A DNA stretch of 55,179 nucleotides from a virus (taxonomy: Duplodnaviria > Caudoviricetes), in IMG/VR virus record IMGVR_UViG_3300046734_000050, positions 1-55,179 of that record; one strand, written 5' to 3'. Shown one piece after another: positions 44,639 to 54,146 of this stretch (position 1 is its first letter; every line of letters starts with the position of its first letter). The notes below the pieces were generated by a model. That model searched no databases. It was given only the letters and a program-made list of their open reading frames with translations, and was not told where the DNA came from. Both the position numbers and the translations under genes were made by a program.

Positions 44639-45859
44639 TTATACCATCTCCTTGTTGTTGTTATACATTTCATGCCATGTCTCAGCTAATGGTATGCCCT
44701 TGAGTATATGTGCAATCACATCAACTGTCCACCCATTGCCAATCATTTTGTATCGCTGACTATTGGATACATGATTGGTATAGTTGTCAGGTAATGTCTG
44801 CAATCGTTCACACTCAAGTGGTGTCAGCTTTCGCCACATATCTTTAGAGACTAGCACGTTATCTTTTTGTACAGTAGTGAGACAGTTAGACTTCTCATCT
44901 TTGCGAACTTCTATCTGTCTTGTGTAAGGCAACTCAAGTTGATAATCTTTCCTAGTACCATGCTCATCTAGTCTACGATTAACAATCCTACCAATAGCAA
45001 CCTTTGGTTCTCTGTGTCCACCTTGCATGGTAGTAAGTGTAGGTGCTTTACCTTCTTGTGCATACACTCGCTTGATTGAGTCATGTCCTTTGAGGTCAGC
45101 AGTACCTACCCTAATCAATCCATCTTTGGACATGGTAGGGTTATCCTTGAGTACCATAGTACGTTGTTTACGTTCAATACTATTCCACCATACTGCACCA
45201 TTATATCTAGCAGTAAGACAATGAGACTTGCCATTGCTAGTCATCTCATCTGTAGCATAGCCATCTTCTAGTATGTTTTGCATAGTCAAACCCTTGCATA
45301 TCATAGGTGGTATAGTTATCTGCTCATACTTAGGATAGTGTTCAAAGTCATCTTCAACATCATAGTATAGTTTACCAAACCAATACAATCTGTATCTGTT
45401 TTGTGCTGATACATACTTAGAGTTTAATGCTTGTGGTTCAAATCCCATGTACTCAGATATCACATCTTGTGATTTTCTAGCCATACGTACATTCTCTAGC
45501 AGTACATACTTAGGCTTACACTCATCTCGTATACGTATGAAGTCAAAGAATAACTTACTACGTGGGTCATCAAAGTTAAGCTGATGTCCTGCGAATGAGA
45601 ATCCTTGACAAGGTGAACCACCCATAAGCAAATCAATAGGTGGGTCATAGTCTAAGGCATAATCAACACCCATACCTCTTTCGCTAGGCTTTACTTGTGT
45701 AACATCTCCTAGCTGAATAGTGTTAGGAAAGTTAGCTTGTGTCACTTTGATTGCATACTTATCAATCTCACTTGCATAGTAGTTGTCTACGTGAATACCT
45801 GCCCTTTGCAAGGCAAGTTGACCACCACTACAACCATCAAATAAACTTAGTACATTCAT
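44639..45859 (-). CDS. DNA cytosine-5 methyltransferase
   Basis: Motif I LSLFDG, IV GSPCQGFS, VI ENV, VIII QNRYRLYW, IX LTPLECERLQ, X IGNGW. Confidence 0.93.
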   Translation of the reverse strand: MNVLSLFDGCSGGQLALQRAGIHVDNYYASEIDKYAIKVTQANFPNTIQLGDVTQVKPSERGMGVDYALDYDPPIDLLMGGSPCQGFSFAGHQLNFDDPRSKLFFDFIRIRDECKPKYVLLENVRMARKSQDVISEYMGFEPQALNSKYVSAQNRYRLYWFGKLYYDVEDDFEHYPKYEQITIPPMICKGLTMQNILEDGYATDEMTSNGKSHCLTARYNGAVWWNSIERKQRTMVLKDNPTMSKDGLIRVGTADLKGHDSIKRVYAQEGKAPTLTTMQGGHREPKVAIGRIVNRRLDEHGTRKDYQLELPYTRQIEVRKDEKSNCLTTVQKDNVLVSKDMWRKLTPLECERLQTLPDNYTNHVSNSQRYKMIGNGWTVDVIAHILKGIPLAETWHEMYNNNKEMV

Positions 45860-46140
45860 TACCATGTTCCTCCTAGTTTTCTTACCTTAACATACATTCT
45901 ATCTAGTTGTACAGCCAATCTTCTATACTTGATAAACCATTTTCTAACGTGTGGGTCTGATTGTTTCTCCACTTTATAGAATGGTAGCCTACCTTCTACG
46001 TTCAAAGTCACTTGTGAGAAGTCATCATTAGCACACTCCATGTCCTCTAAATTTTCATAGAGAGCATCAATAATCATTGACAACTCTTGTGGTTTTAGCT
46101 TTACATCTATCTCTTTTACTTTTGCACTTACGTCAGCCAT
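45859..46140 (-). CDS. Hypothetical protein
   Basis: 93 aa, GGAG RBS. Confidence 0.7.
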   Translation of the reverse strand: MADVSAKVKEIDVKLKPQELSMIIDALYENLEDMECANDDFSQVTLNVEGRLPFYKVEKQSDPHVRKWFIKYRRLAVQLDRMYVKVRKLGGTW

Positions 46141-46217: not shown

Positions 46218-46583
46218 TTAGGCATCTTCCCATTCCTTAATGGTGAATCCTGCATTGCTATGATTTATAGCTTGCTTACCTATGAAGGTAATACTATGCC
46301 TTAACTCTTTAAGGGTTGAATGAGCAGACACACTCTCTCCTCTATCATCAAGACCTAGCACTAAACCCTTACCACCTATAGGTGTATAGGCATCTTTGTG
46401 AAGAAAGAAGTGATTGTTTTCCTTAAGCAATCCTTCATCGTCTACAAAAATAGTATCCTCATTTGGAATGTCCACAACACCAAAGGTACTAGCATCTATG
46501 TGCTTGTATATCTGTGTGTAATCTCCGTTGTATTCTACCTCTTCGATTGTTTCGTTGATTGGGTCAATTAGTATTGCTCTCAT
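46218..46583 (-). CDS. DUF3846-like hypothetical protein
   Basis: MRAILIDP...IFVDDEGLLK...GKGLVLG. Confidence 0.65.
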   Translation of the reverse strand: MRAILIDPINETIEEVEYNGDYTQIYKHIDASTFGVVDIPNEDTIFVDDEGLLKENNHFFLHKDAYTPIGGKGLVLGLDDRGESVSAHSTLKELRHSITFIGKQAINHSNAGFTIKEWEDA

Positions 46584-46765
46584 TAGTTGTACTCCTTCAC
46601 ATATAAAAATTCTATTCTCTCGTTTGGGTGAACTGCTCTAGCAGTATCCATAGCATGTTCAATTGCATACTCCCATGATGCATCAGGTAGGGCATCAGAG
46701 TGGACATTAACTTGCCCACTCTCTGCACCTATCTTGATACCTACTTGCCAATATGGTATTGTCAT
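46583..46765 (-). CDS. Hypothetical protein
   Basis: 60 aa, TAATG-coupled. Confidence 0.65.
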   Translation of the reverse strand: MTIPYWQVGIKIGAESGQVNVHSDALPDASWEYAIEHAMDTARAVHPNERIEFLYVKEYN

Positions 46766-47142
46766 TAGGCTACCTTTCTCTTTCTGCCTAGCTTAGACTT
46801 GGCTAGGTCTTTGAGGTTACTTACTTTGAAAGAACCATAGCTTTTACTATTGAACTCTTTCCCTTTTCTGATTGCTCTGCAAACTGAGGTTAAGTCTTGT
46901 ATTAAGACCATGAAAGCAGTAGTCGCAGTATTCTGTATGTAGAATCCTTCGTCTGCTTTAGCACCTCTAGACATCTCTAAAGACAGCTTGTACAGTTTCA
47001 TCTTAGATAGTGGTAAACCTACCACCTCTTCATATATAGGCTGAAGAGTATCAAAAAGGTTTTGACCTCTCTCGCTTAAACATTGACCTGTACGACCTGT
47101 AGATTGCTTCCAATAGGAAACGTTGAATGTCTTCTTACTCAT
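46765..47142 (-). CDS. Early hypothetical protein
   Basis: 125 aa, AAGGAG RBS, basic C-terminus RKRKVA. Confidence 0.75.
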   Translation of the reverse strand: MSKKTFNVSYWKQSTGRTGQCLSERGQNLFDTLQPIYEEVVGLPLSKMKLYKLSLEMSRGAKADEGFYIQNTATTAFMVLIQDLTSVCRAIRKGKEFNSKSYGSFKVSNLKDLAKSKLGRKRKVA

Positions 47143-47195
47143 AGTGTTCTCCTTTCATTGAGAGTTAGTGTCCAACATTGGACAGTTACTTTGCA

Positions 47196-47336
47196 TTATG
47201 CAAAATTCCGTTCTTGTATGTTACGTTTAACTTTACGTAAGGCTTGTCTGTCTCGCTTCCAATCATCACGTTTATCTTTCTTGACTGTCTTCTTAACAGA
47301 AATCTTTTCAAATGTTTCGTATTTAATCTTTCGCAA
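47196..47336 (-). CDS. Small basic early protein (TTG start; not in ORF track)
   Basis: GGAG 6 nt before TTG; MRKIKYETFEKISVKKTVKKDKRDDWKRDRQALRKVKRNIQERNFA. Confidence 0.65.
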   Translation of the reverse strand: MRKIKYETFEKISVKKTVKKDKRDDWKRDRQALRKVKRNIQERNFA

Positions 47337-47411
47337 TTTAATCTCCAATAGTTATAATAATATATATATAATACTTTCATATACATTTAAGTATTATATA
47401 TATTATAATTG

Positions 47412-48146
47412 TTATATGTACTTAGCACCTGTTCCATGTCCTACAATAGCAATGCTCTTTGCATTGATAACTGAACCACTACAAAGCTTACAGCTTTCAC
47501 AGGTAGTACGTCTACCTGCTTCTTCTGATGCAGGACATAGAACTTCTTCACCTTTGACTACAGAGTCAACAGATTTGATTACTCTGAAGGTTCTGATACC
47601 ACTAGCCCAAGCACTTTGTGCTTCTTCTAGAGTGTCAGCACTCTTCATACAAAGGTCATATCTTTGATTGACCTTCTGATGTGTATAGCCCGTTCTACCT
47701 TTTGAGTAAGATAGAAGGCTATCCCAAATATAAGATGGTACTGCTGATGGGTCACCATAAGACCCAAGTCTTATGATGTTATCCTTGCCAAGTTCAGCTA
47801 AATCATTATGTCCTTGAACATAATCATAATTACCCTTCTTGTATGTTTTCCAAACATTCAAAGGTGCTTGGTAGATTGCAACATAGCAAGCCCTATTTTC
47901 AGCTAACTTCCTATCGGAAGAAGCATCAACAGCAGTACCTCGAAGCTTACAGTCTCCACAAATAGAATAGTCCAAGCCAAGCTTATTAGCTTCACGTGGG
48001 TCTATGTCCTTGCAAAGTATCCATGTCTGTATCATGCTACCTGTCTTGCTATTGCTAGAATCCTTATCAAATCCCGTTGCAATAACAACAATATCTTGAC
48101 CATCAATCATTGATTGACCTTCATATAAAATGTAACCATTAGCCAT
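47412..48146 (-). CDS. Cys-rich early protein, possibly Fe-S or Zn binding
   Basis: NSKTG, ICGDC...CYV, RLGSYGDP, GYTHQ, CPAS...TCESCKLC. Confidence 0.75.
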   Translation of the reverse strand: MANGYILYEGQSMIDGQDIVVIATGFDKDSSNSKTGSMIQTWILCKDIDPREANKLGLDYSICGDCKLRGTAVDASSDRKLAENRACYVAIYQAPLNVWKTYKKGNYDYVQGHNDLAELGKDNIIRLGSYGDPSAVPSYIWDSLLSYSKGRTGYTHQKVNQRYDLCMKSADTLEEAQSAWASGIRTFRVIKSVDSVVKGEEVLCPASEEAGRRTTCESCKLCSGSVINAKSIAIVGHGTGAKYI

Positions 48147-48225
48147 TGTATTCTCCGTGATGTTTAAGTTATATATATAATAAATATACTTTCATATACA
48201 TTCAAGTATATTTATTATTATATTA

Positions 48226-48459
48226 CTAAAGTTTTTTATCTAGTGCAGTCCATAGTCCATCAAGTTCATTGATGTCGTAGTATCCATAGCCTAGCTTTTT
48301 ACCTTCGGTATCTTCTATGTAAAAACCTCTATCATCAGACTGCCACTTCTCCCATATATTTCCAATATATCCAAATGAATAATCTTTTGGAAGATTGTTT
48401 TCAATCTTATCATAGTACTTACGGAACTTCTCTCTATCAATATCTTTAAAATGTATCAT
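48226..48459 (-). CDS. Early hypothetical protein
   Basis: 77 aa, GGAG RBS. Confidence 0.7.
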   Translation of the reverse strand: MIHFKDIDREKFRKYYDKIENNLPKDYSFGYIGNIWEKWQSDDRGFYIEDTEGKKLGYGYYDINELDGLWTALDKKL

Positions 48460-48460
48460 T

Positions 48461-48712
48461 TTAATACTCCCTAACTCTATCGTAGATATAAAGATACTCT
48501 TTAATATCTAGTAATATTTCATCATACTCTTTCTTTGCCAAGTCTTTTAACCCTTCCTCATAGGAAGAATAACTAGAAACGATTTGATTAAGAGATATGT
48601 ATCGTAAGACACAACTCCCTTCCTTAAGGTTTTCAACCTTTTCTAGCACGTACCTGCTACCCTTTGCTATGATGTCAGAAGGCAAATCTTGATATCCATA
48701 ATTAAATCTCAT
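48461..48712 (-). CDS. Early hypothetical protein
   Basis: 83 aa, GGAG RBS. Confidence 0.7.
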   Translation of the reverse strand: MRFNYGYQDLPSDIIAKGSRYVLEKVENLKEGSCVLRYISLNQIVSSYSSYEEGLKDLAKKEYDEILLDIKEYLYIYDRVREY

Positions 48713-48760
48713 ATTAATCTCCGATTAAAAGTTAAAATTAAAGTGTCCAACATTGGACAG

Positions 48761-49030
48761 TTAGTACTCATCAGAGTACACTTCTCCGAAGTCTTCCCAC
48801 TCCTGCTCCCATGAAGGCTGACCATCATCTTCGTCTTCTTCTCCGAAGAACTCAGCCCACTCCGAAGGAGTTACACCTGTCTTAATGAACTCTCGTTCAT
48901 CAGCAGATAAGTTTGGCATGGCATCTTGAATAAGAGTACCATTCTCCCAAGAGCTTAATTGCTCTTGAGTTACATCAATGTCCATTGTATGAACATTGTT
49001 AGTAAAAGCTGACATTCTTGTAATTTTCAT
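48761..49030 (-). CDS. Early acidic protein
   Basis: LIQDAMPNLSADEREFIKTG core plus acidic tail EEDEDDGQPSWEQEWEDF. Confidence 0.8.
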   Translation of the reverse strand: MKITRMSAFTNNVHTMDIDVTQEQLSSWENGTLIQDAMPNLSADEREFIKTGVTPSEWAEFFGEEDEDDGQPSWEQEWEDFGEVYSDEY

Positions 49031-49133
49031 AATAAACTCCGTTTAAGTTAAAGTGTCCAACATTGGACTGTTTAAGTTATATATATAATAAATAATATTT
49101 CATTAAAATATTATATTATTTATTATTATATTA

Positions 49134-49349
49134 CTAATTGTTTCGGAAATGGTGGATTATAAATAATCCTGTCATTAACAAAGTTAATCCCATTGCTCCG
49201 ATTAAACCAACAAACATTATTCCCAAAGGGAATCCTTGGTTGATTGCTTCGCTCATGTAATAACCTTCCTCTTCTGATAAGGTTATCCAAGCCATTAAAG
49301 TTACAGGTATTCCTAAAAGGAATATTAATACTCCATCTAATTTACTCAT
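49134..49349 (-). CDS. Early two-TM membrane protein
   Basis: Two hydrophobic helices; GGAG RBS. Confidence 0.7.
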   Translation of the reverse strand: MSKLDGVLIFLLGIPVTLMAWITLSEEEGYYMSEAINQGFPLGIMFVGLIGAMGLTLLMTGLFIIHHFRNN

Positions 49350-49350
49350 T

Positions 49351-49617
49351 TTAAACTCCGTTTAACATTTCATCTAACATTGCAATAGCTTCGCTATTGT
49401 CAGAGTGTCCAACATTGGACAGTTTACCTTTGGTAAGAGCTTCTTTGAACATCTTAGTTTCAAGTTCATTCTTTCTTGAAACATAAACTTCCAATGGCTC
49501 ATCATGGTCTTTGACCATCTGAATCCAATTACTTCGTAATGGTTTATGTTTATAATTAGAACCAAAGCTTCGCTTTACAGTAGTTTTACACCAAAGTTTT
49601 CTTTTAAGTCTCGCCAT
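49351..49617 (-). CDS. Early hypothetical protein containing one 14-bp site
   Basis: 88 aa; LSNVGH is encoded by the palindrome. Confidence 0.75.
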   Translation of the reverse strand: MARLKRKLWCKTTVKRSFGSNYKHKPLRSNWIQMVKDHDEPLEVYVSRKNELETKMFKEALTKGKLSNVGHSDNSEAIAMLDEMLNGV

Positions 49618-49724
49618 GTTTATCTCCTAAGATATATATAATAATTAATACTTTCGTAAGTATTCAAGTATTAATTATTTATATCTCTAAATGTTAAAGT
49701 TATCATTCACAAAGAAGATAGCTG

Positions 49725-50327
49725 TTAAGCTACCTTCTTAAGGTTATCTTCTTCTAAAAGAGCTAATTGCTCTTTAAGGGCTTTGATGAAGTCACTCTTT
49801 GAGATACCATTGGTATCACAAGCTAGTATAGCTTCAAAAGCTACATCAGAAGCTGAAAGCTTCTTTTGAACCTTCGGTTCTTCTTTGACAGACTGTCCAA
49901 CATTGGACTCTTCAGAAGAAGTATCTTCTGTAGTTTGAGACTCTGTCTCATCTTGAACCTTTGGTTCATCTTTTGGCTTATTAGCCAAGCTGTAAGCTCT
50001 TTGCAGAGCAGTTAAAGAGGTAAACCTCTTCTTAGGGTTTTGGTTTAACCAAGTGACTATGTCACTATGATTGGAGAATAACCATAAAGCTTCGCTTTTT
50101 CTTCTTCTATCGATGGAATTAATTCCATACTTTAAGGCTAAAGCCTTACTAATAATCTTAACATTTTCAATGGTTAAGATTTCAGACTGTAGCTTTCCAA
50201 GCTCAAAGTCAAAACTCTCCTTGCTGAAAACCATCTTTGTAGTTTTCACTTTCAAAGCCTTTTGCTCTTTGTTGTAGATTTTAGTTAAGTTTGAACCGAT
50301 TGACTGAAGTGTTGAAATGTTAGTCAT
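49725..50327 (-). CDS. First early gene; candidate DNA-binding protein containing one 14-bp site
   Basis: 200 aa; FELGKL...GINSIDRRRKSEALWLFSN helical basic segment; acidic linker with ESNVGQ encoded by the palindrome. Confidence 0.8.
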   Translation of the reverse strand: MTNISTLQSIGSNLTKIYNKEQKALKVKTTKMVFSKESFDFELGKLQSEILTIENVKIISKALALKYGINSIDRRRKSEALWLFSNHSDIVTWLNQNPKKRFTSLTALQRAYSLANKPKDEPKVQDETESQTTEDTSSEESNVGQSVKEEPKVQKKLSASDVAFEAILACDTNGISKSDFIKALKEQLALLEEDNLKKVA

Positions 50328-50398
50328 ATGTTTTCTCCTAAGTTATATTAATTAAATTTAAACACCTTTCGTAAGAACTCAAGGTGCTTTAAATTTAA

Positions 50399-50427
50399 TA
50401 TATAACTAAATGGTTTCGGTTTGTCAA
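50399..50427 (-). promoter_or_regulatory. Sigma70-like early promoter
   Basis: Minus strand TTGACA-N17-TATATA upstream of the first early gene. Confidence 0.75.
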
Positions 50428-50562
50428 GCCATCAATAGACTTTGTCGAAGTAAGTATCGACATTGTTTTTTTAAGAAGACTTCAACAGTCCAACATTGGA
50501 CACTTAACTTACTACCACTAGGGTAGTAAAAAAGCCATACTCCTCCACTCCGTACTACCTCT

Positions 50563-50890
50563 TGTTGCAAAAATGTCACACTTCTCATCGAAGATGAATA
50601 GGAAACTGATAGTAAATGAGTTGTTTACTTAGAATAAGTACTTGATTTTACTACATTTTATATGCTTTAGCATATAGAGCTTGGGAAGAAGTCTTCAATT
50701 CTATCAGAAAAGACTCTTTGAGATGAGAACTCTAGCCAATCCCTAGCCCTCGGCAGGGGTCAGTGGGGGGTAGGGGTTATATATATATACAGAAATACAC
50801 AGATTAGGAAAACTAAGTGTTAACTACAATAGAAACTGTACAAACATATACACACAAGCACACACAAATAAGTGTTGCATTTATATCACA
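50563..50890. promoter_or_regulatory. Two 18-bp imperfect palindromes TGTTGCA-N4-T(G/A)TCACA
   Basis: 50563-50580 and 50873-50890; the second overlaps a -35 box. Confidence 0.55.
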
Positions 50891-50903
50891 CGCATGTTAT
50901 AAT
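50875..50903 (+). promoter_or_regulatory. Sigma70-like promoter with extended -10
   Basis: TTGCAT-N17-TATAAT with TG-n before the -10. Confidence 0.65.
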
Positions 50904-50928
50904 CGTACATGCCTAAAAATAATTGGGG

Positions 50929-50957
50929 TTGACAAGTATCGTGATTGATGGTATAAC
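50929..50957 (+). promoter_or_regulatory. Sigma70-like promoter
   Basis: TTGACA-N17-TATAAC. Confidence 0.75.
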
Positions 50958-50976
50958 TTAGGGCATAATCAACACA

Positions 50977-51049
50977 CACTTATAATGTAACACTTAAATG
51001 TTTATTACTTATTCTTGTTAAATTCACTTATATGTAACACTTAAATGTA
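50977..51049 (+). repeat. Four iteron-like CACTTA(T/A)(A)ATGT units in two pairs
   Basis: 50977, 50991, 51025 and 51038. Confidence 0.8.
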
Positions 51050-51106
51050 CACATAAGTAATCCTCCCTAATAAATATATCCGTAATAAATAAAAAGTTGC
51101 TTGACA

Positions 51107-51319
51107 ATGAAACGAAAATCAGTAAAACTATATACACCAGAGAATATGTTAGAAGCATTTTATGATGCTATCCGTAATAACAAACTAAAAGAATTGCACA
51201 TTCCCCATAGTTCCGTATTTTATGTACGTGCTGCTATTGAAGCCGACACTGGAGTGCGATACACTCTGAAACATGTAGAGACTGCAATGAAGGCAGAAGG
51301 GATGTTAAATGATGTTTGA
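51107..51319 (+). CDS. Hypothetical protein
   Basis: First ORF of the plus arm; LHIPHSSVFYVRAAIE; start uncertain. Confidence 0.65.
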   Translation: MKRKSVKLYTPENMLEAFYDAIRNNKLKELHIPHSSVFYVRAAIEADTGVRYTLKHVETAMKAEGMLNDV

Positions 51320-51791: not shown

Positions 51792-52391
51792 ATGTCTGAA
51801 GACGTTATAAAAAAATATAAACAAAGATTAAAAAAAGATTTAGTGCAACCTAAGTCTAAAAAAGAAACAACTAAAAAAAAATCAAGCTTGACTAAGCCTA
51901 AAAGTTCTAAGCTAGGAACAGGTAGTAAAAGCAGTGGTTCAAAAAATCCTACTACTGTAAAAAATATAAAGGAAAAGAAAAGCATACTATCTGGAATGAA
52001 TTTTAAAGATATATTTAATACGTACATTGCAGGTTCTAAGACTAAAATTAAACCAAAGAAAAAAACAACATCAACTAAAACAAAAACGATGTCCGATAAA
52101 TATAAAACTCAAATGTCTAAAATAGCTAAAAATGAAAAAGGTGTCAAGTCTTCTCAAAATGACGCAAACAAATACTCTAAGTTAAAAAGTGACGCTACTA
52201 AAAAGCTAATGAATAAAAAGAAAAGCACAACCACTAAAAAGAAAACACCTATAGTAACTAAAGAGCAGTTAAGAAAATCAGGTCTAACCTTACGTGATTA
52301 CATGAATATGTTACAAGGTAAAACACGTAGAGATTATAAGGATGTTAAAAAAGCAGCCGTAAAGAAAAGAGCAAAAGGAGCAATCACATGA
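51792..52391 (+). CDS. Lys-rich basic protein
   Basis: 199 aa, very K/S/T-rich; GGAG RBS; VTKEQL..SGLTLRDYMN. Confidence 0.75.
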   Translation: MSEDVIKKYKQRLKKDLVQPKSKKETTKKKSSLTKPKSSKLGTGSKSSGSKNPTTVKNIKEKKSILSGMNFKDIFNTYIAGSKTKIKPKKKTTSTKTKTMSDKYKTQMSKIAKNEKGVKSSQNDANKYSKLKSDATKKLMNKKKSTTTKKKTPIVTKEQLRKSGLTLRDYMNMLQGKTRRDYKDVKKAAVKKRAKGAIT

Positions 52392-53149
52392 GTGCAAAAG
52401 CAAAATTAGCCGCTAATATATTAAAAGCTTTAGGTAAAAAAACTAGCAAGAAGAAAAAAGAGTTAGAAGCAAAGACTCTTAAAGAGTTAAAAAAAGAAGC
52501 AAAATTAGTTCAGGGTCATTCATCCGATAGAAAAACAAATTTTAAAGATGCACGTAAAAAAACAGATAACAAAAAAGTTACTGAAACTTTAAAAAAAGAA
52601 CAGAAAAGACAATTAAACGTTAACAAAAACCAAAAGTCAGGTGGAGGCGTAAATAAAATTGTAAGAGGTGATGAAAGTAAAGATGCTCTTAAAACTGCAC
52701 CTATGACACAAAAAGAACTAAAAGCACAAGGTGCAGTAAGTGGACCTTCTTCTATGGCATTTATGGCTGCTATTAAAGGTAAAGCAAAAGCCTTAGCTGA
52801 ACAAGTACAAAAGAAAAAGAAGCTGTATGATAATTTATCTGCCTCAGATAAAAAAGGAGAAAAAGGACAGCTACTACAAAATGCTATTAAAGATATGCAG
52901 AAGAAACTAAAAGGTCAAGTACCTATTCGTACTTTACGAGACGCAAATCTTTTAAATAAAGGTGGATTAGCTACGCCTAAGCCTAATCAAACAGGATTAA
53001 AGAAACTACCTACTACTGTACGTAACAAGATGGGTTACATGTATGGTGGTGGAATAGCTAAGAAAAAGAAAACAGGAAGTATGGACTACCGTAAGGGTGG
53101 ACTTGTAATAATGATAGGCATGGGTAAACCTAAGAAAGGAACAAAATAA
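52388..53149 (+). CDS. Lys-rich basic protein with KGG motifs
   Basis: 253 aa; LNKGGL, GLKKLP..VRNKMGYMYGGG, DYRKGGL. Confidence 0.75.
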   Translation: MSAKAKLAANILKALGKKTSKKKKELEAKTLKELKKEAKLVQGHSSDRKTNFKDARKKTDNKKVTETLKKEQKRQLNVNKNQKSGGGVNKIVRGDESKDALKTAPMTQKELKAQGAVSGPSSMAFMAAIKGKAKALAEQVQKKKKLYDNLSASDKKGEKGQLLQNAIKDMQKKLKGQVPIRTLRDANLLNKGGLATPKPNQTGLKKLPTTVRNKMGYMYGGGIAKKKKTGSMDYRKGGLVIMIGMGKPKKGTK

Positions 53150-53442
53150 TGGCTATGGATGCGAAAAAAGGAATGACTGATGCACAGATAATGAAACAGA
53201 TTATCAAAGATGCAACTAAAGGTCTAAAGGGTGAAGAAAAACAAAAGGTAATTAGAGACTTATTTGTTAAAGTTATGCCAAAACCAAAAGGCATGACAAA
53301 CAAAAAGAAAACAACCATGACTACTAAAAAAATGACAGCAGCTAAAGGTGGTATGGCTAAGAAAACTAAGTACATGGCTAAGGGTGGTGCAACTAAAAAG
53401 ACTAAGTACATGGCTAAGGGTGGAGCTGCTAAAAAGAAGTAA
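53149..53442 (+). CDS. Basic protein with tandem AKGG repeats
   Basis: AAKGGMAKKTKY-MAKGGATKKTKY-MAKGGAAKKK; 36-bp period in the DNA. Confidence 0.75.
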   Translation: MAMDAKKGMTDAQIMKQIIKDATKGLKGEEKQKVIRDLFVKVMPKPKGMTNKKKTTMTTKKMTAAKGGMAKKTKYMAKGGATKKTKYMAKGGAAKKK

Positions 53443-54146
53443 TGTCTTATCTGATAAGTAACGTACCACATTTTAAATGTTGGGTACGTAGGGAGTTCAC
53501 ATGTAATCATCTGGACTACCACGGAGAATATCTCCACGCATTAGCGTTTGCCGTGAATACCATACCTGACAGGTCATTAAGTTTTCAGGTAGTCTTTACT
53601 GGAAGTACTGAAGAAGATAATGTACATGGTGGTGCTATGTGGGCTAGGATGCCAATACAAGCACTTGTAGCTGATATACCTGTAGATGAATGGGCAGAGC
53701 CAATGGAAGACCACTTGTGTCAACCTTGGGATTGTGAGTCTAGGCATCATAGTGTTATAGTAATGGACAGAGTAAGTTCTAGTCCATGGCTGTGTAAGAT
53801 AGACAATGAGTTCTACAAAGCTAAGTATATGTTTACAGTGGACTATACTGACAGTGATATAGCAGATGACCCTGCACAGCATAAACAATCACACGTAATG
53901 TATTTGATTGATGCAGGTAAATGGACAGGTAACATTGTAGCCTTACCGAATAACAGAGTAAGAGCCACAAGTCCTGCTTTATGGGTTACAGGTGAAGGTG
54001 CTCCTGATTTTACACCATCACAGTGGACACACTCAGCAGAGTCACATGAGTCTTACTTAGACCCATATACTACATTTAATAATCTTTATGAGGATAGAGA
54101 TGGCAATAAAAAAAGCAAAAGCAACAATAAAAAAAGTAGCAAGTAA
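53442..54146 (+). CDS. Conserved hypothetical protein
   Basis: 234 aa; VHGGAMWARMPI, QPWDC, DDPAQHKQSH, ALPNNRVR. Confidence 0.8.
   Translation: MSYLISNVPHFKCWVRREFTCNHLDYHGEYLHALAFAVNTIPDRSLSFQVVFTGSTEEDNVHGGAMWARMPIQALVADIPVDEWAEPMEDHLCQPWDCESRHHSVIVMDRVSSSPWLCKIDNEFYKAKYMFTVDYTDSDIADDPAQHKQSHVMYLIDAGKWTGNIVALPNNRVRATSPALWVTGEGAPDFTPSQWTHSAESHESYLDPYTTFNNLYEDRDGNKKSKSNNKKSSK

Follow-up and report, generated by a model that had tools for sequence, protein, structure and literature searches.

Here, we identify a 200-amino acid (aa) viral protein as the very probable cognate binder of a dispersed 14-base pair (bp) palindrome. The protein is encoded by 49725..50327 on the minus strand of a 55,179-nucleotide (nt) stretch of Caudoviricetes DNA (IMG/VR record IMGVR_UViG_3300046734_000050), to which we refer at its full length as the window. 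We are nearly as confident that the bound target would be double-stranded DNA. In the explanation that we favour overall, with moderate confidence, this protein binds GTCCAA-NN-TTGGAC, probably as a dimer, at dispersed early operators and would regulate the early genes; taken on its own, the case for early transcription control as the function appears to us evenly balanced.

The palindrome of the window, GTCCAACATTGGAC, consists of 6-bp arms and a 2-bp centre (CA on the plus strand) and is imperfect. Six exact copies in the same orientation start at 47170, 48745, 49055, 49407, 49895 and 50488; they spread over 3.3 kilobases (kb; 47170-50501), and there is none elsewhere in the 55 kb. A search that tolerated up to 2 mismatches gave 12 matches, i.e., these six places on 2 strands, versus 0.32 expected, and 12 matches were reached in 0 of 100 shuffles. 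Two of the six copies are intragenic. The copies, to which no strand is assigned, are the following:

50488..50501: copy upstream of the gene, at 161 bp from its ATG and ~70 bp ahead of the predicted -35 element
49895..49908: palindrome copy in the gene's own linker, encoding S141-N142-V143-G144
49407..49420: palindrome copy in the second early gene (49351-49617, minus strand), in the same S-N-V-G frame
49055..49068: copy located 24 bp in front of the start codon (ATG) of gene 48761-49030, immediately behind an AT-rich element that resembles a promoter
48745..48758: copy located 32 bp in front of the start codon (ATG) of gene 48461-48712
47170..47183: copy located 27 bp in front of the start codon (ATG) of gene 46765-47142

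We rejected the palindromes as intrinsic terminators. A scan flags 5 of them for T-rich flanks, but the intragenic two have no T-run and the stems have 5-6 pairs only.

The open reading frame (ORF) is as quoted in the first-pass annotation, with 200 codons on the minus strand and with both the FELGKLQSEI...RRRKSEALWLFSN and the EESNVGQS stretches. Its description as the first gene after the early promoter is borne out by our reading of the sequence, in which a near-consensus sigma-70-type promoter is predicted on the minus strand 71 bp ahead of the ATG (TTGACA at 50427-50422, a 17-bp spacer and TATATA at 50404-50399); an automated promoter scan skipped this element, as its rule needs T as the last base of the second hexamer. 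An AlphaFold2 model built with a 59-sequence alignment agrees with the three-part layout that had been proposed, i.e., a helical N-terminal domain, a disordered linker containing the site and a small helical C-terminal domain. The relevant features are the following:

49725..50327, minus strand: gene that encodes the 200-aa protein and opens the leftward early block; homologue of CRP-1 gp01, CRP-345 gp01 and HMO-2011 gp74
50399..50427, minus strand: predicted early promoter TTGACA-17-TATATA, read from the sequence
49974..50327, minus strand: N-terminal all-helical domain, residues 1-118 (AlphaFold2), proposed as the DNA-binding domain, with the KorB DNA-binding domain as a weak best match
50106..50108, minus strand: codon of R74, the first residue of the conserved RRRK/RRRR helix, which tracks the outer half-site bases
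49983..50021, minus strand: helix 103-115 (TSLTALQRAYSLA), the proposed base-reading helix, in which T106, R110, S113 and L114 change with half-site base 5
49854..49973, minus strand: acidic low-complexity linker, residues 119-158 (AlphaFold2)
49728..49853, minus strand: C-terminal two-helix domain, residues 159-200 (AlphaFold2 helices 159-199)

In the model, the N-domain helices span residues 4-24, 30-34, 39-54, 61-67, 74-96 and 105-115, and this domain modelled alone has a predicted local distance difference test score (pLDDT) of 90.2 and a predicted template modelling score of 0.84. Linker residues 123-145 have a pLDDT <50, and the palindrome copy lies inside that stretch. The C-terminal two-helix domain is a possible dimerisation module: a comparison of residues 157-200 with the ribbon-helix-helix antitoxins TacA1, ParD2, MazE6, MazE-mt9 and CopA(SO) gave Z scores of 3.6-4.2, which are below the tool's meaningful level, and the sequence has a G174-I-S176 turn of the G-x-S/T/N kind found in ribbon-helix-helix proteins. 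In all 4 RNA-library runs considered, contigs that are 90-99% alike cover portions of the gene; these contigs give neither ends nor strands and could stem from DNA carry-over, and we do not count them as expression.

Among 675 candidates, we found 242 relatives of the protein at 90% clustering, which form 72 clusters at 50% identity; all are ~180-260 aa long and none is named. On the sequence evidence, the family has so far been met only in phage contigs and marine metagenomes, and a scan of 185,579 species genomes with patterns from one alignment (A3) returned 0 relatives and, by that route, no prophage copy. We collected 108 loci on viral contigs (numbered with the prefix L); these locus searches used narrower alignment sets (A3, A6 and A7), and one of them kept 80 of 205 relatives. 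Homologues are also present in the phages CRP-1 (gp01, 32% identity) and CRP-345 (gp01, 31% identity), and a distant one in HMO-2011 (gp74, 24% identity). GTCCAA-NN-TTGGAC is present in 5 copies in CRP-1 and in 6 copies in CRP-345, in each with one copy within gp01 at the S-N-V-G place and one ~235 bp upstream. HMO-2011 lacks this palindrome; in its place, AGTCCGACAGCGGACT occurs five times in the surroundings of gp74. When the loci were searched de novo for inverted repeats that recur, the following palindrome classes emerged:

GTCCAA-NN-TTGGAC (class A), the commonest
GTCCGA-NN-TCGGAC (class G)
CCCCAACGTTGGGG and CCCCGATGTCGGGG, with half-sites CCCCAA and CCCCGA
(G)TCCCAA-NN-TTGGGA(C)
TTCCGA-TTG-TCGGAA, with a 3-bp spacer
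AGTCC-N6-GGACT

A palindrome family of at least 3 copies with 6-bp arms was found de novo in 64 of 70 distinct early regions versus 0 of 67 equal-sized control regions, which were taken from the neighbouring module of the same contigs; the 6 early regions without such a family have cut flanks or motifs with 5-bp arms. Homologues in genomes devoid of a repeated palindrome, which the first-pass annotation had named as the observation that would speak against the pairing, are not the pattern found. The number of sites per locus has a median of 5 and ranges from 2 to 9. Classes A and G together were seen in 0 of 86 loci, and the same holds for hybrid sites (0 of 86). An upstream copy, 60-450 bp ahead of the gene, is present in 73 of 83 loci. 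A site inside the protein's own gene, the feature that had first drawn attention to this protein, is frequent without being a requirement: of 89 distinct complete genes, 79 have one, at 58-75% of gene length, and four of the 10 genes without an internal copy have a copy 25-67 bp past the stop codon. Because the linker peptide turns from S-N-V-G into S-D-V-G when the site is GTCCGA..TCGGAC, the DNA dictates the peptide and not the reverse. The second early gene of the window (49351-49617, minus strand) encodes 88 aa without a family assignment, and its orthologue in L009 has S-D-V-G, in line with the GTCCGA class of that locus.

Several lines of evidence from co-variation support the idea that the protein reads the palindrome. 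First, in the mutual information between site class and alignment columns, residue 106 ranks at the top apart from the site's own codon, with 0.51 of a possible 0.576 bits, and is followed by columns 113, 114 and 110; all four are on helix 103-115. Among 95 loci, Thr106 occurs with class A in 74, Ser106 with class G in 20, Ser106 with class A in 1 (L035) and Thr106 with class G in 0. This set leaves aside ORFs <175 aa that are cut by contig ends as well as L107 and L110, and HMO-2011, L100, L102 and L104, with Lys or Asn at position 106 and a degenerate inner site, were left unclassified. Second, on a tree made without the helix and site columns, the site class (half-site base 5, A or G) changes 10-12 times. 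Independent pairs for residue 106 versus class gave 9 changes in the same direction, 0 in the opposite direction and 1 unchanged (sign test, p=0.0039); a first, smaller set had given 6/0/1 (p=0.031). Third, when nearest neighbours of class A and class G are compared in 16 pairs, some of which are not independent of each other, position 142 (in the site) differs in 16/16, positions 106, 110 and 113 in 15/16 each and position 114 in 14/16, while the next position differs in 10/16. Fourth, near-identical proteins go with different sites. L095 and L098 are 98.4% identical outside the helix and have 8 differences in total, 5 of which are at 104, 106, 110, 113 and 114; the class-A protein (L095) has Thr106, Arg110, Lys113 and Gln114, and the class-G protein (L098) has Ser106, Lys110, Ala113 and Lys114. 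Each phage has five sites, and every one differs in class between the two. L035 and L032 are colinear with 92% identity over 7.5 kb, and all five orthologous sites are switched in both arms; this in-place switch of all five sites rules out a simple module swap. L035, which has Ser106 together with class-A sites, differs from its class-G sister at 110, 113 and 114 only and may represent an intermediate on the path of a specificity switch. Finally, position 74 is occupied by R or K in all 91 loci in which the half-site starts with GT and by S, D or A in all 12 loci in which it starts with TC, CC or TT, and the RRR core of the RRRK helix is nearly invariant. The first-pass annotation had suggested that homologues carry different palindromes that co-vary with the RRRKSEA helix. 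The co-variation was found; however, its main element is helix 103-115, and from the RRRK helix only R74 tracks the palindrome, at the outer bases.

These same data bear on the alternative that another phage or host factor reads the palindromes and that the gene's helix hitch-hikes by linkage or module exchange, which we consider the least probable of the alternatives. As a control, we clustered all ORFs of at least 40 aa in the loci, on both strands, into 30 neighbouring families. In neighbour families with at least 5 class-G members, no column outside a palindrome exceeded 0.59 of the class entropy versus 0.88 for column 106 of the gene; two antisense ORF families merely mirror the gene or the sites, and one small ORF family contains a site. 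The signal is on one face of one helix (106, 110, 113 and 114) and not across the gene or its neighbours, the near-identical colinear pairs switch their sites in place without a module swap, the 9 independent events all have the same direction with 0 in the opposite one, and a host factor cannot account for different classes among phages that are 92-98% identical. On the other side, the support is all correlational, early regions of phages are mosaic and the competing genes considered are those within ~5 kb.

The anatomy of the sites, in turn, favours a dimer on duplex DNA, because conservation is lowest in the centre and the arms do not vary, the sequence logo has symmetric flanks (AAA...TTT), both centre orientations occur within single genomes and, in the clade of the window, a strong predicted promoter sits between the upstream copy and the gene, which places this copy outside the predicted transcript. 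The centre dinucleotide on the gene strand, in 449 sites from 100 loci, is TG in 283, CG in 81, CA in 69, GG in 14 and TA in 2.

Several observations weigh against the explanation that we favour. On the protein side, residue 106 is not the sole determinant of class, as L035 combines Ser106 with class A; R74K, which the first 10 sequences had suggested as the determinant of the A/G switch, was rejected, as DRRRR and DKRRR occur with both classes in 86 loci; the signal at residue 74 stems from just 3-4 independent events (p=0.25); and the neighbour-gene control covers genes within ~5 kb. With respect to the fold, Foldseek searches of the PDB with the full-length and N-domain models gave no match at E≤0.001. 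VIA-align, run over 48,161 chains, ranks the KorB DNA-binding domain on its operator (1r71_A) first for both models (Z 4.9/4.8; root-mean-square deviation 3.5 Å; 86 residues aligned) and also lists Spo0J (1vz0_A; Z 4.0) and SopB-DNA (3mkw_B and 3mky_P; Z 3.4; 22-25% identity); however, these matches (Z 4.9, 4.0 and 3.4) are all below the tool's meaningful level. On the DNA side, symmetric arm changes also keep an RNA hairpin, with predicted folds of -6.1 to -7.2 kcal/mol; TG prevails over CA with a 4:1 strand bias (283 versus 69); 136 of 433 sites (~30%) are 0-40 bp before an ORF start, just 5' of the ribosome-binding site; and the sites have no fixed distance from predicted promoters (70-180 bp, from a noisy prediction).

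The hairpin, the strand bias and the position before ORF starts would also suit a protein that binds a GUCCA-AUGU-UGGAC hairpin in the nascent early transcript, either as an antiterminator similar to lambda N on boxB or at a translational operator before each cistron. Lambda N has an arginine-rich motif, and the protein described here, the first early product, has an arginine-rich helix that may be comparable. We regard this RNA alternative as improbable. The stem is invariant and the loop least conserved, which is the opposite of known hairpin binders and typical of half-sites with a spacer; the occurrence of both centre orientations in single genomes and the upstream copy ahead of the strong predicted promoter also argue against RNA. 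Moreover, the protein has a well-folded 120-aa domain (pLDDT 90.2) and a second domain rather than a short disordered peptide as in lambda N/boxB-type systems. The strand bias could have arisen if a central CpG decayed by C-to-T change on the non-template strand, and the centre counts are in line with such decay, starting from a perfect AACGTT and taking place mostly on that strand. The phage of the window encodes a C5 cytosine methylase at 44639-45865 (Pfam), and a link between this enzyme and the decay of the centre is speculative.

A DNA-binding fold of the N-domain is proposed; sequence-based methods do not place the protein in a known family. In Pfam, the protein of the window is unmatched at E≤0.01, and nothing consistent was obtained among 59 members; a profile search of PDB sequences gave nothing relevant, with KorB and ParB absent at E≤10. 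PHROG 36047, which is of unknown function, is matched weakly (E 5e-4). Foldseek against BFVD gave a single match, the unnamed 205-aa entry S4S2E1 (TMq 0.69), which we take as a family member and which is perhaps HMO-2011 gp74. The first-pass annotation had likened the protein to KorB/ParB-like and DUF3102-like proteins. In structure, the KorB DNA-binding domain is the top match, at a weak Z of 4.8-4.9, and membership is not supported by sequence. The ParB models of Pfam, including the ParB/Srx-type CTP-binding domain ParBc, which has the GERRxR box, have no match at E≤1 among the 59 members, and the AlphaFold2 model is all-helical over the 120 residues before the linker; hhalign of a 56-sequence N-domain profile with the R751 KorB DNA-binding domain gave a probability of 0.3% (E 0.22), i.e., no similarity; and DUF3102 (PF11300) has no Pfam match among the 59 members at E≤1, appearing only as a language-model look-alike (score 0.89, rank 8, below the tool's own trust level). 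The likeness to PHROG 36047 and DUF3102 is thus weak, and neither has a known function. HTH_3/Cro models of Pfam match neither the protein nor the 59 members.

The closest functional parallel appears to be KorB, the ParB-family global repressor of the IncP plasmids RK2 and R751. KorB has many dispersed palindromes that are near promoters, far away from them or in genes, and the six copies in the window are similarly dispersed and partly intragenic. KorB also combines a helical DNA-binding domain, a linker and a separate C-terminal dimerisation domain, and the layout here is similar, with the C-domain as the candidate for dimerisation. The base contacts of KorB include Thr211, and the co-varying residue here is a Thr at the N-terminus of a helix. 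The study of 1r71 reportedly found base-specific contacts by Thr211 and Arg240 outside the classical helix-turn-helix, and this numbering agrees with the 1r71 chain sequence; judged by the aligned ranges and not by a residue-level superposition, T106 would be near Thr211. By contrast, the protein described here has no ParB N-terminal CTP-binding domain, its C-domain is two-helical or ribbon-helix-helix-like rather than the SH3-like fold of KorB, it is encoded in the early operon of a lytic-type podophage, it has no detectable sequence relation to KorB, and no KorA partner and no ParA/IncC-type ATPase partner was found, the latter in the PHROG scan of 59 window ORFs. We, therefore, compare the protein with KorB in its probable way of working and do not file it as a member of the KorB family.

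Three other systems offer partial parallels. ParB/Spo0J of Bacillus subtilis has a parS site within spo0J, the binder's own gene, and more copies nearby, which is the arrangement seen here; however, parS is nearly universal in bacteria, whereas the site here is re-specified repeatedly among close relatives, and there is no CTPase or spreading domain and no Pfam ParB match. Lambda O has its sites in its own gene, in the DNA for a flexible linker between the N-terminal DNA-binding and the C-terminal domains, similar to the linker copy here; however, ori-lambda has four clustered iterons beside an AT-rich region, whereas there is one in-gene copy here with the rest over 3-5 kb, and homology was not found. 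Lambdoid Cro/CI with OR/OL, known for heteroimmunity, share with the present system a first early product, about six pseudo-palindromic operators and specificities that diversify together among relatives; here, however, the early promoters are not covered by a cluster of operators, HTH_3/Cro models do not match, and the protein is 200 aa long with two domains.

The main alternative for the function is that the same protein binds the same sites as a ParB/KorB-like or initiator-like organiser of DNA. It would then mark the early genome end for replication initiation, comparable to lambda O with ori-lambda inside its own gene, or act in segregation of a non-integrated prophage or in compaction or protection of the DNA. 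We regard this as unlikely, though less so than the RNA alternative. It gains from the dispersed, partly intragenic sites with variable distance to predicted promoters, from one site that abuts the AT-rich element 49069-49137, from the best, weak structural matches, which are the centromere and operator binders KorB, Spo0J and SopB, and from the phage having primase, helicase and polymerase and no recognised initiator in the 59-ORF scan. It loses from the failure to find a ParA-type partner among these ORFs or a ParB N-terminal CTPase domain in the protein, from sites that extend over 3-5 kb and are not clustered like iterons, and from the ~30% of sites that are just before early cistrons.

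Based on these considerations, we suggest that an early regulator acts on its own module as follows. The protein would bind GTCCAA-NN-TTGGAC, an inverted repeat of 14 bp, and would probably do so as a dimer in which each N-domain takes one 6-bp half-site. Helix 103-115, with Thr106 and with residues 110, 113 and 114 on the same face, would read the inner base pair; R74, the N-terminal residue of the arginine-rich helix, would read the outer bases, leaving the invariant R75/R76 free to read the invariant CC/GG. The operators, 5-9 in number, would be dispersed in the early region only, with one upstream of the early promoter, one usually in the DNA for the binder's own linker and the rest mostly 20-40 bp before early cistrons. 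Because the protein is the first early product, it would then act back on the early region and control it globally, as a repressor that also regulates itself or as a roadblock, with a logic like that of lambda Cro or plasmid KorB. The lack of a fixed distance between sites and promoters means that a classical operator-over-promoter mechanism is not evident. Because the sites precede early cistrons, lie in two early genes and are present upstream of the promoter at no fixed distance, their placement appears to suit a roadblock, or an effect exerted from afar, better than it suits occlusion of a promoter in the classical way. Repeated switching of specificity would keep related phages from cross-regulation.

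The genome in which this system is embedded was annotated by PHROG and Pfam scans over 59 window ORFs, covering ORFs of at least 70 aa on the expected strand. It has a podophage gene set (terminase, portal, major head protein and tail fibres) and also encodes a family-A DNA polymerase, a primase, a DnaB-like helicase, an integrase, a class II ribonucleotide reductase and MazG; an RNA polymerase gene was not found in the window by these scans. Because the closest named phages are Puniceispirillum phage HMO-2011 and the Roseobacter phages CRP-1 and CRP-345, the window is, by sequence affinity, an HMO-2011-type marine podophage genome. Genes point rightward up to ~30.4 kb, leftward from ~30.4 kb to 50327 and rightward again past a 770-bp intergenic region. 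The rightward block opens with very lysine-rich low-complexity ORFs of 199, 253 and 97 aa without a family match (51792-53442, plus strand).

Two further elements accompany the early region. The divergent intergenic region contains a non-coding element of ~80 nt (window 50741-50830), ~250 bp upstream of the first palindrome. This element is also present at HMO-2011 53523-53631 and in the upstream flanks of L007-L115, and it is kept in 72 of ~105 related loci even at only 30% protein identity; within it, GGTTAACA, ATCTGTGT, a C-run and TGCC do not vary. Neither a covarying RNA structure nor an Rfam or tRNA match was found for it, and it could act as a promoter for the other module or represent a genome terminus or an origin. 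In addition, AT-rich repeats of 38-69 nt that could form hairpins are present between early genes (47346-47414, 48161-48229, 49069-49137, 49641-49678 and 50340-50400). Several of them hold promoter-like TTGAAT-17/18-TATTAT hexamers on the minus strand, and they could serve as further early promoters or as sites of processing. Scanning of 46500-51300 and 50300-51150 for Rfam families and tRNAs gave two sub-threshold chance matches and 0 tRNAs.

HMO-2011-type phages are described in the abstract of PMC9038755 as a dominant, widely distributed marine viral group. That paper mentions neither a promoter nor DNA binding, PMC6918029 mentions no palindrome, inverted repeat, promoter or DNA binding, and no paper that links HMO-2011 with a palindrome was found in the library searched. 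In the texts searched, the original description of HMO-2011 not being among them, these phages are thus given no regulator, promoter or repeated site. A regulator with palindromic operators is a known kind of system, whereas the protein family, the layout and the switching series are new. To HMO-2011-type phages, the protein adds a first candidate regulator with a full set of sites, which can be tested in the cultured roseophages CRP-1 and CRP-345. It also provides a rare natural series in which near-identical proteins differ in 4-5 residues of one helix while all operators differ at one symmetric base pair, and this series is useful for studies of direct readout and for orthogonal regulator/operator pairs. 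Finally, we put forward a tentative idea, as a possibility and not an expectation: the palindrome class, as read by residues 74, 106, 110, 113 and 114, may serve as an immunity-like identity system of HMO-2011-type phages that sets who regulates or shuts down whom in co-infection or lysogeny. Frequency-dependent selection for escape from repression by related phages would then drive the at least 10 independent flips between two inner-base states, each of which extends across all 5-9 sites of a genome. If this is true, a naturally replicated, simple protein-DNA recognition code would operate in a virus group that ranks among the most abundant in the sea.

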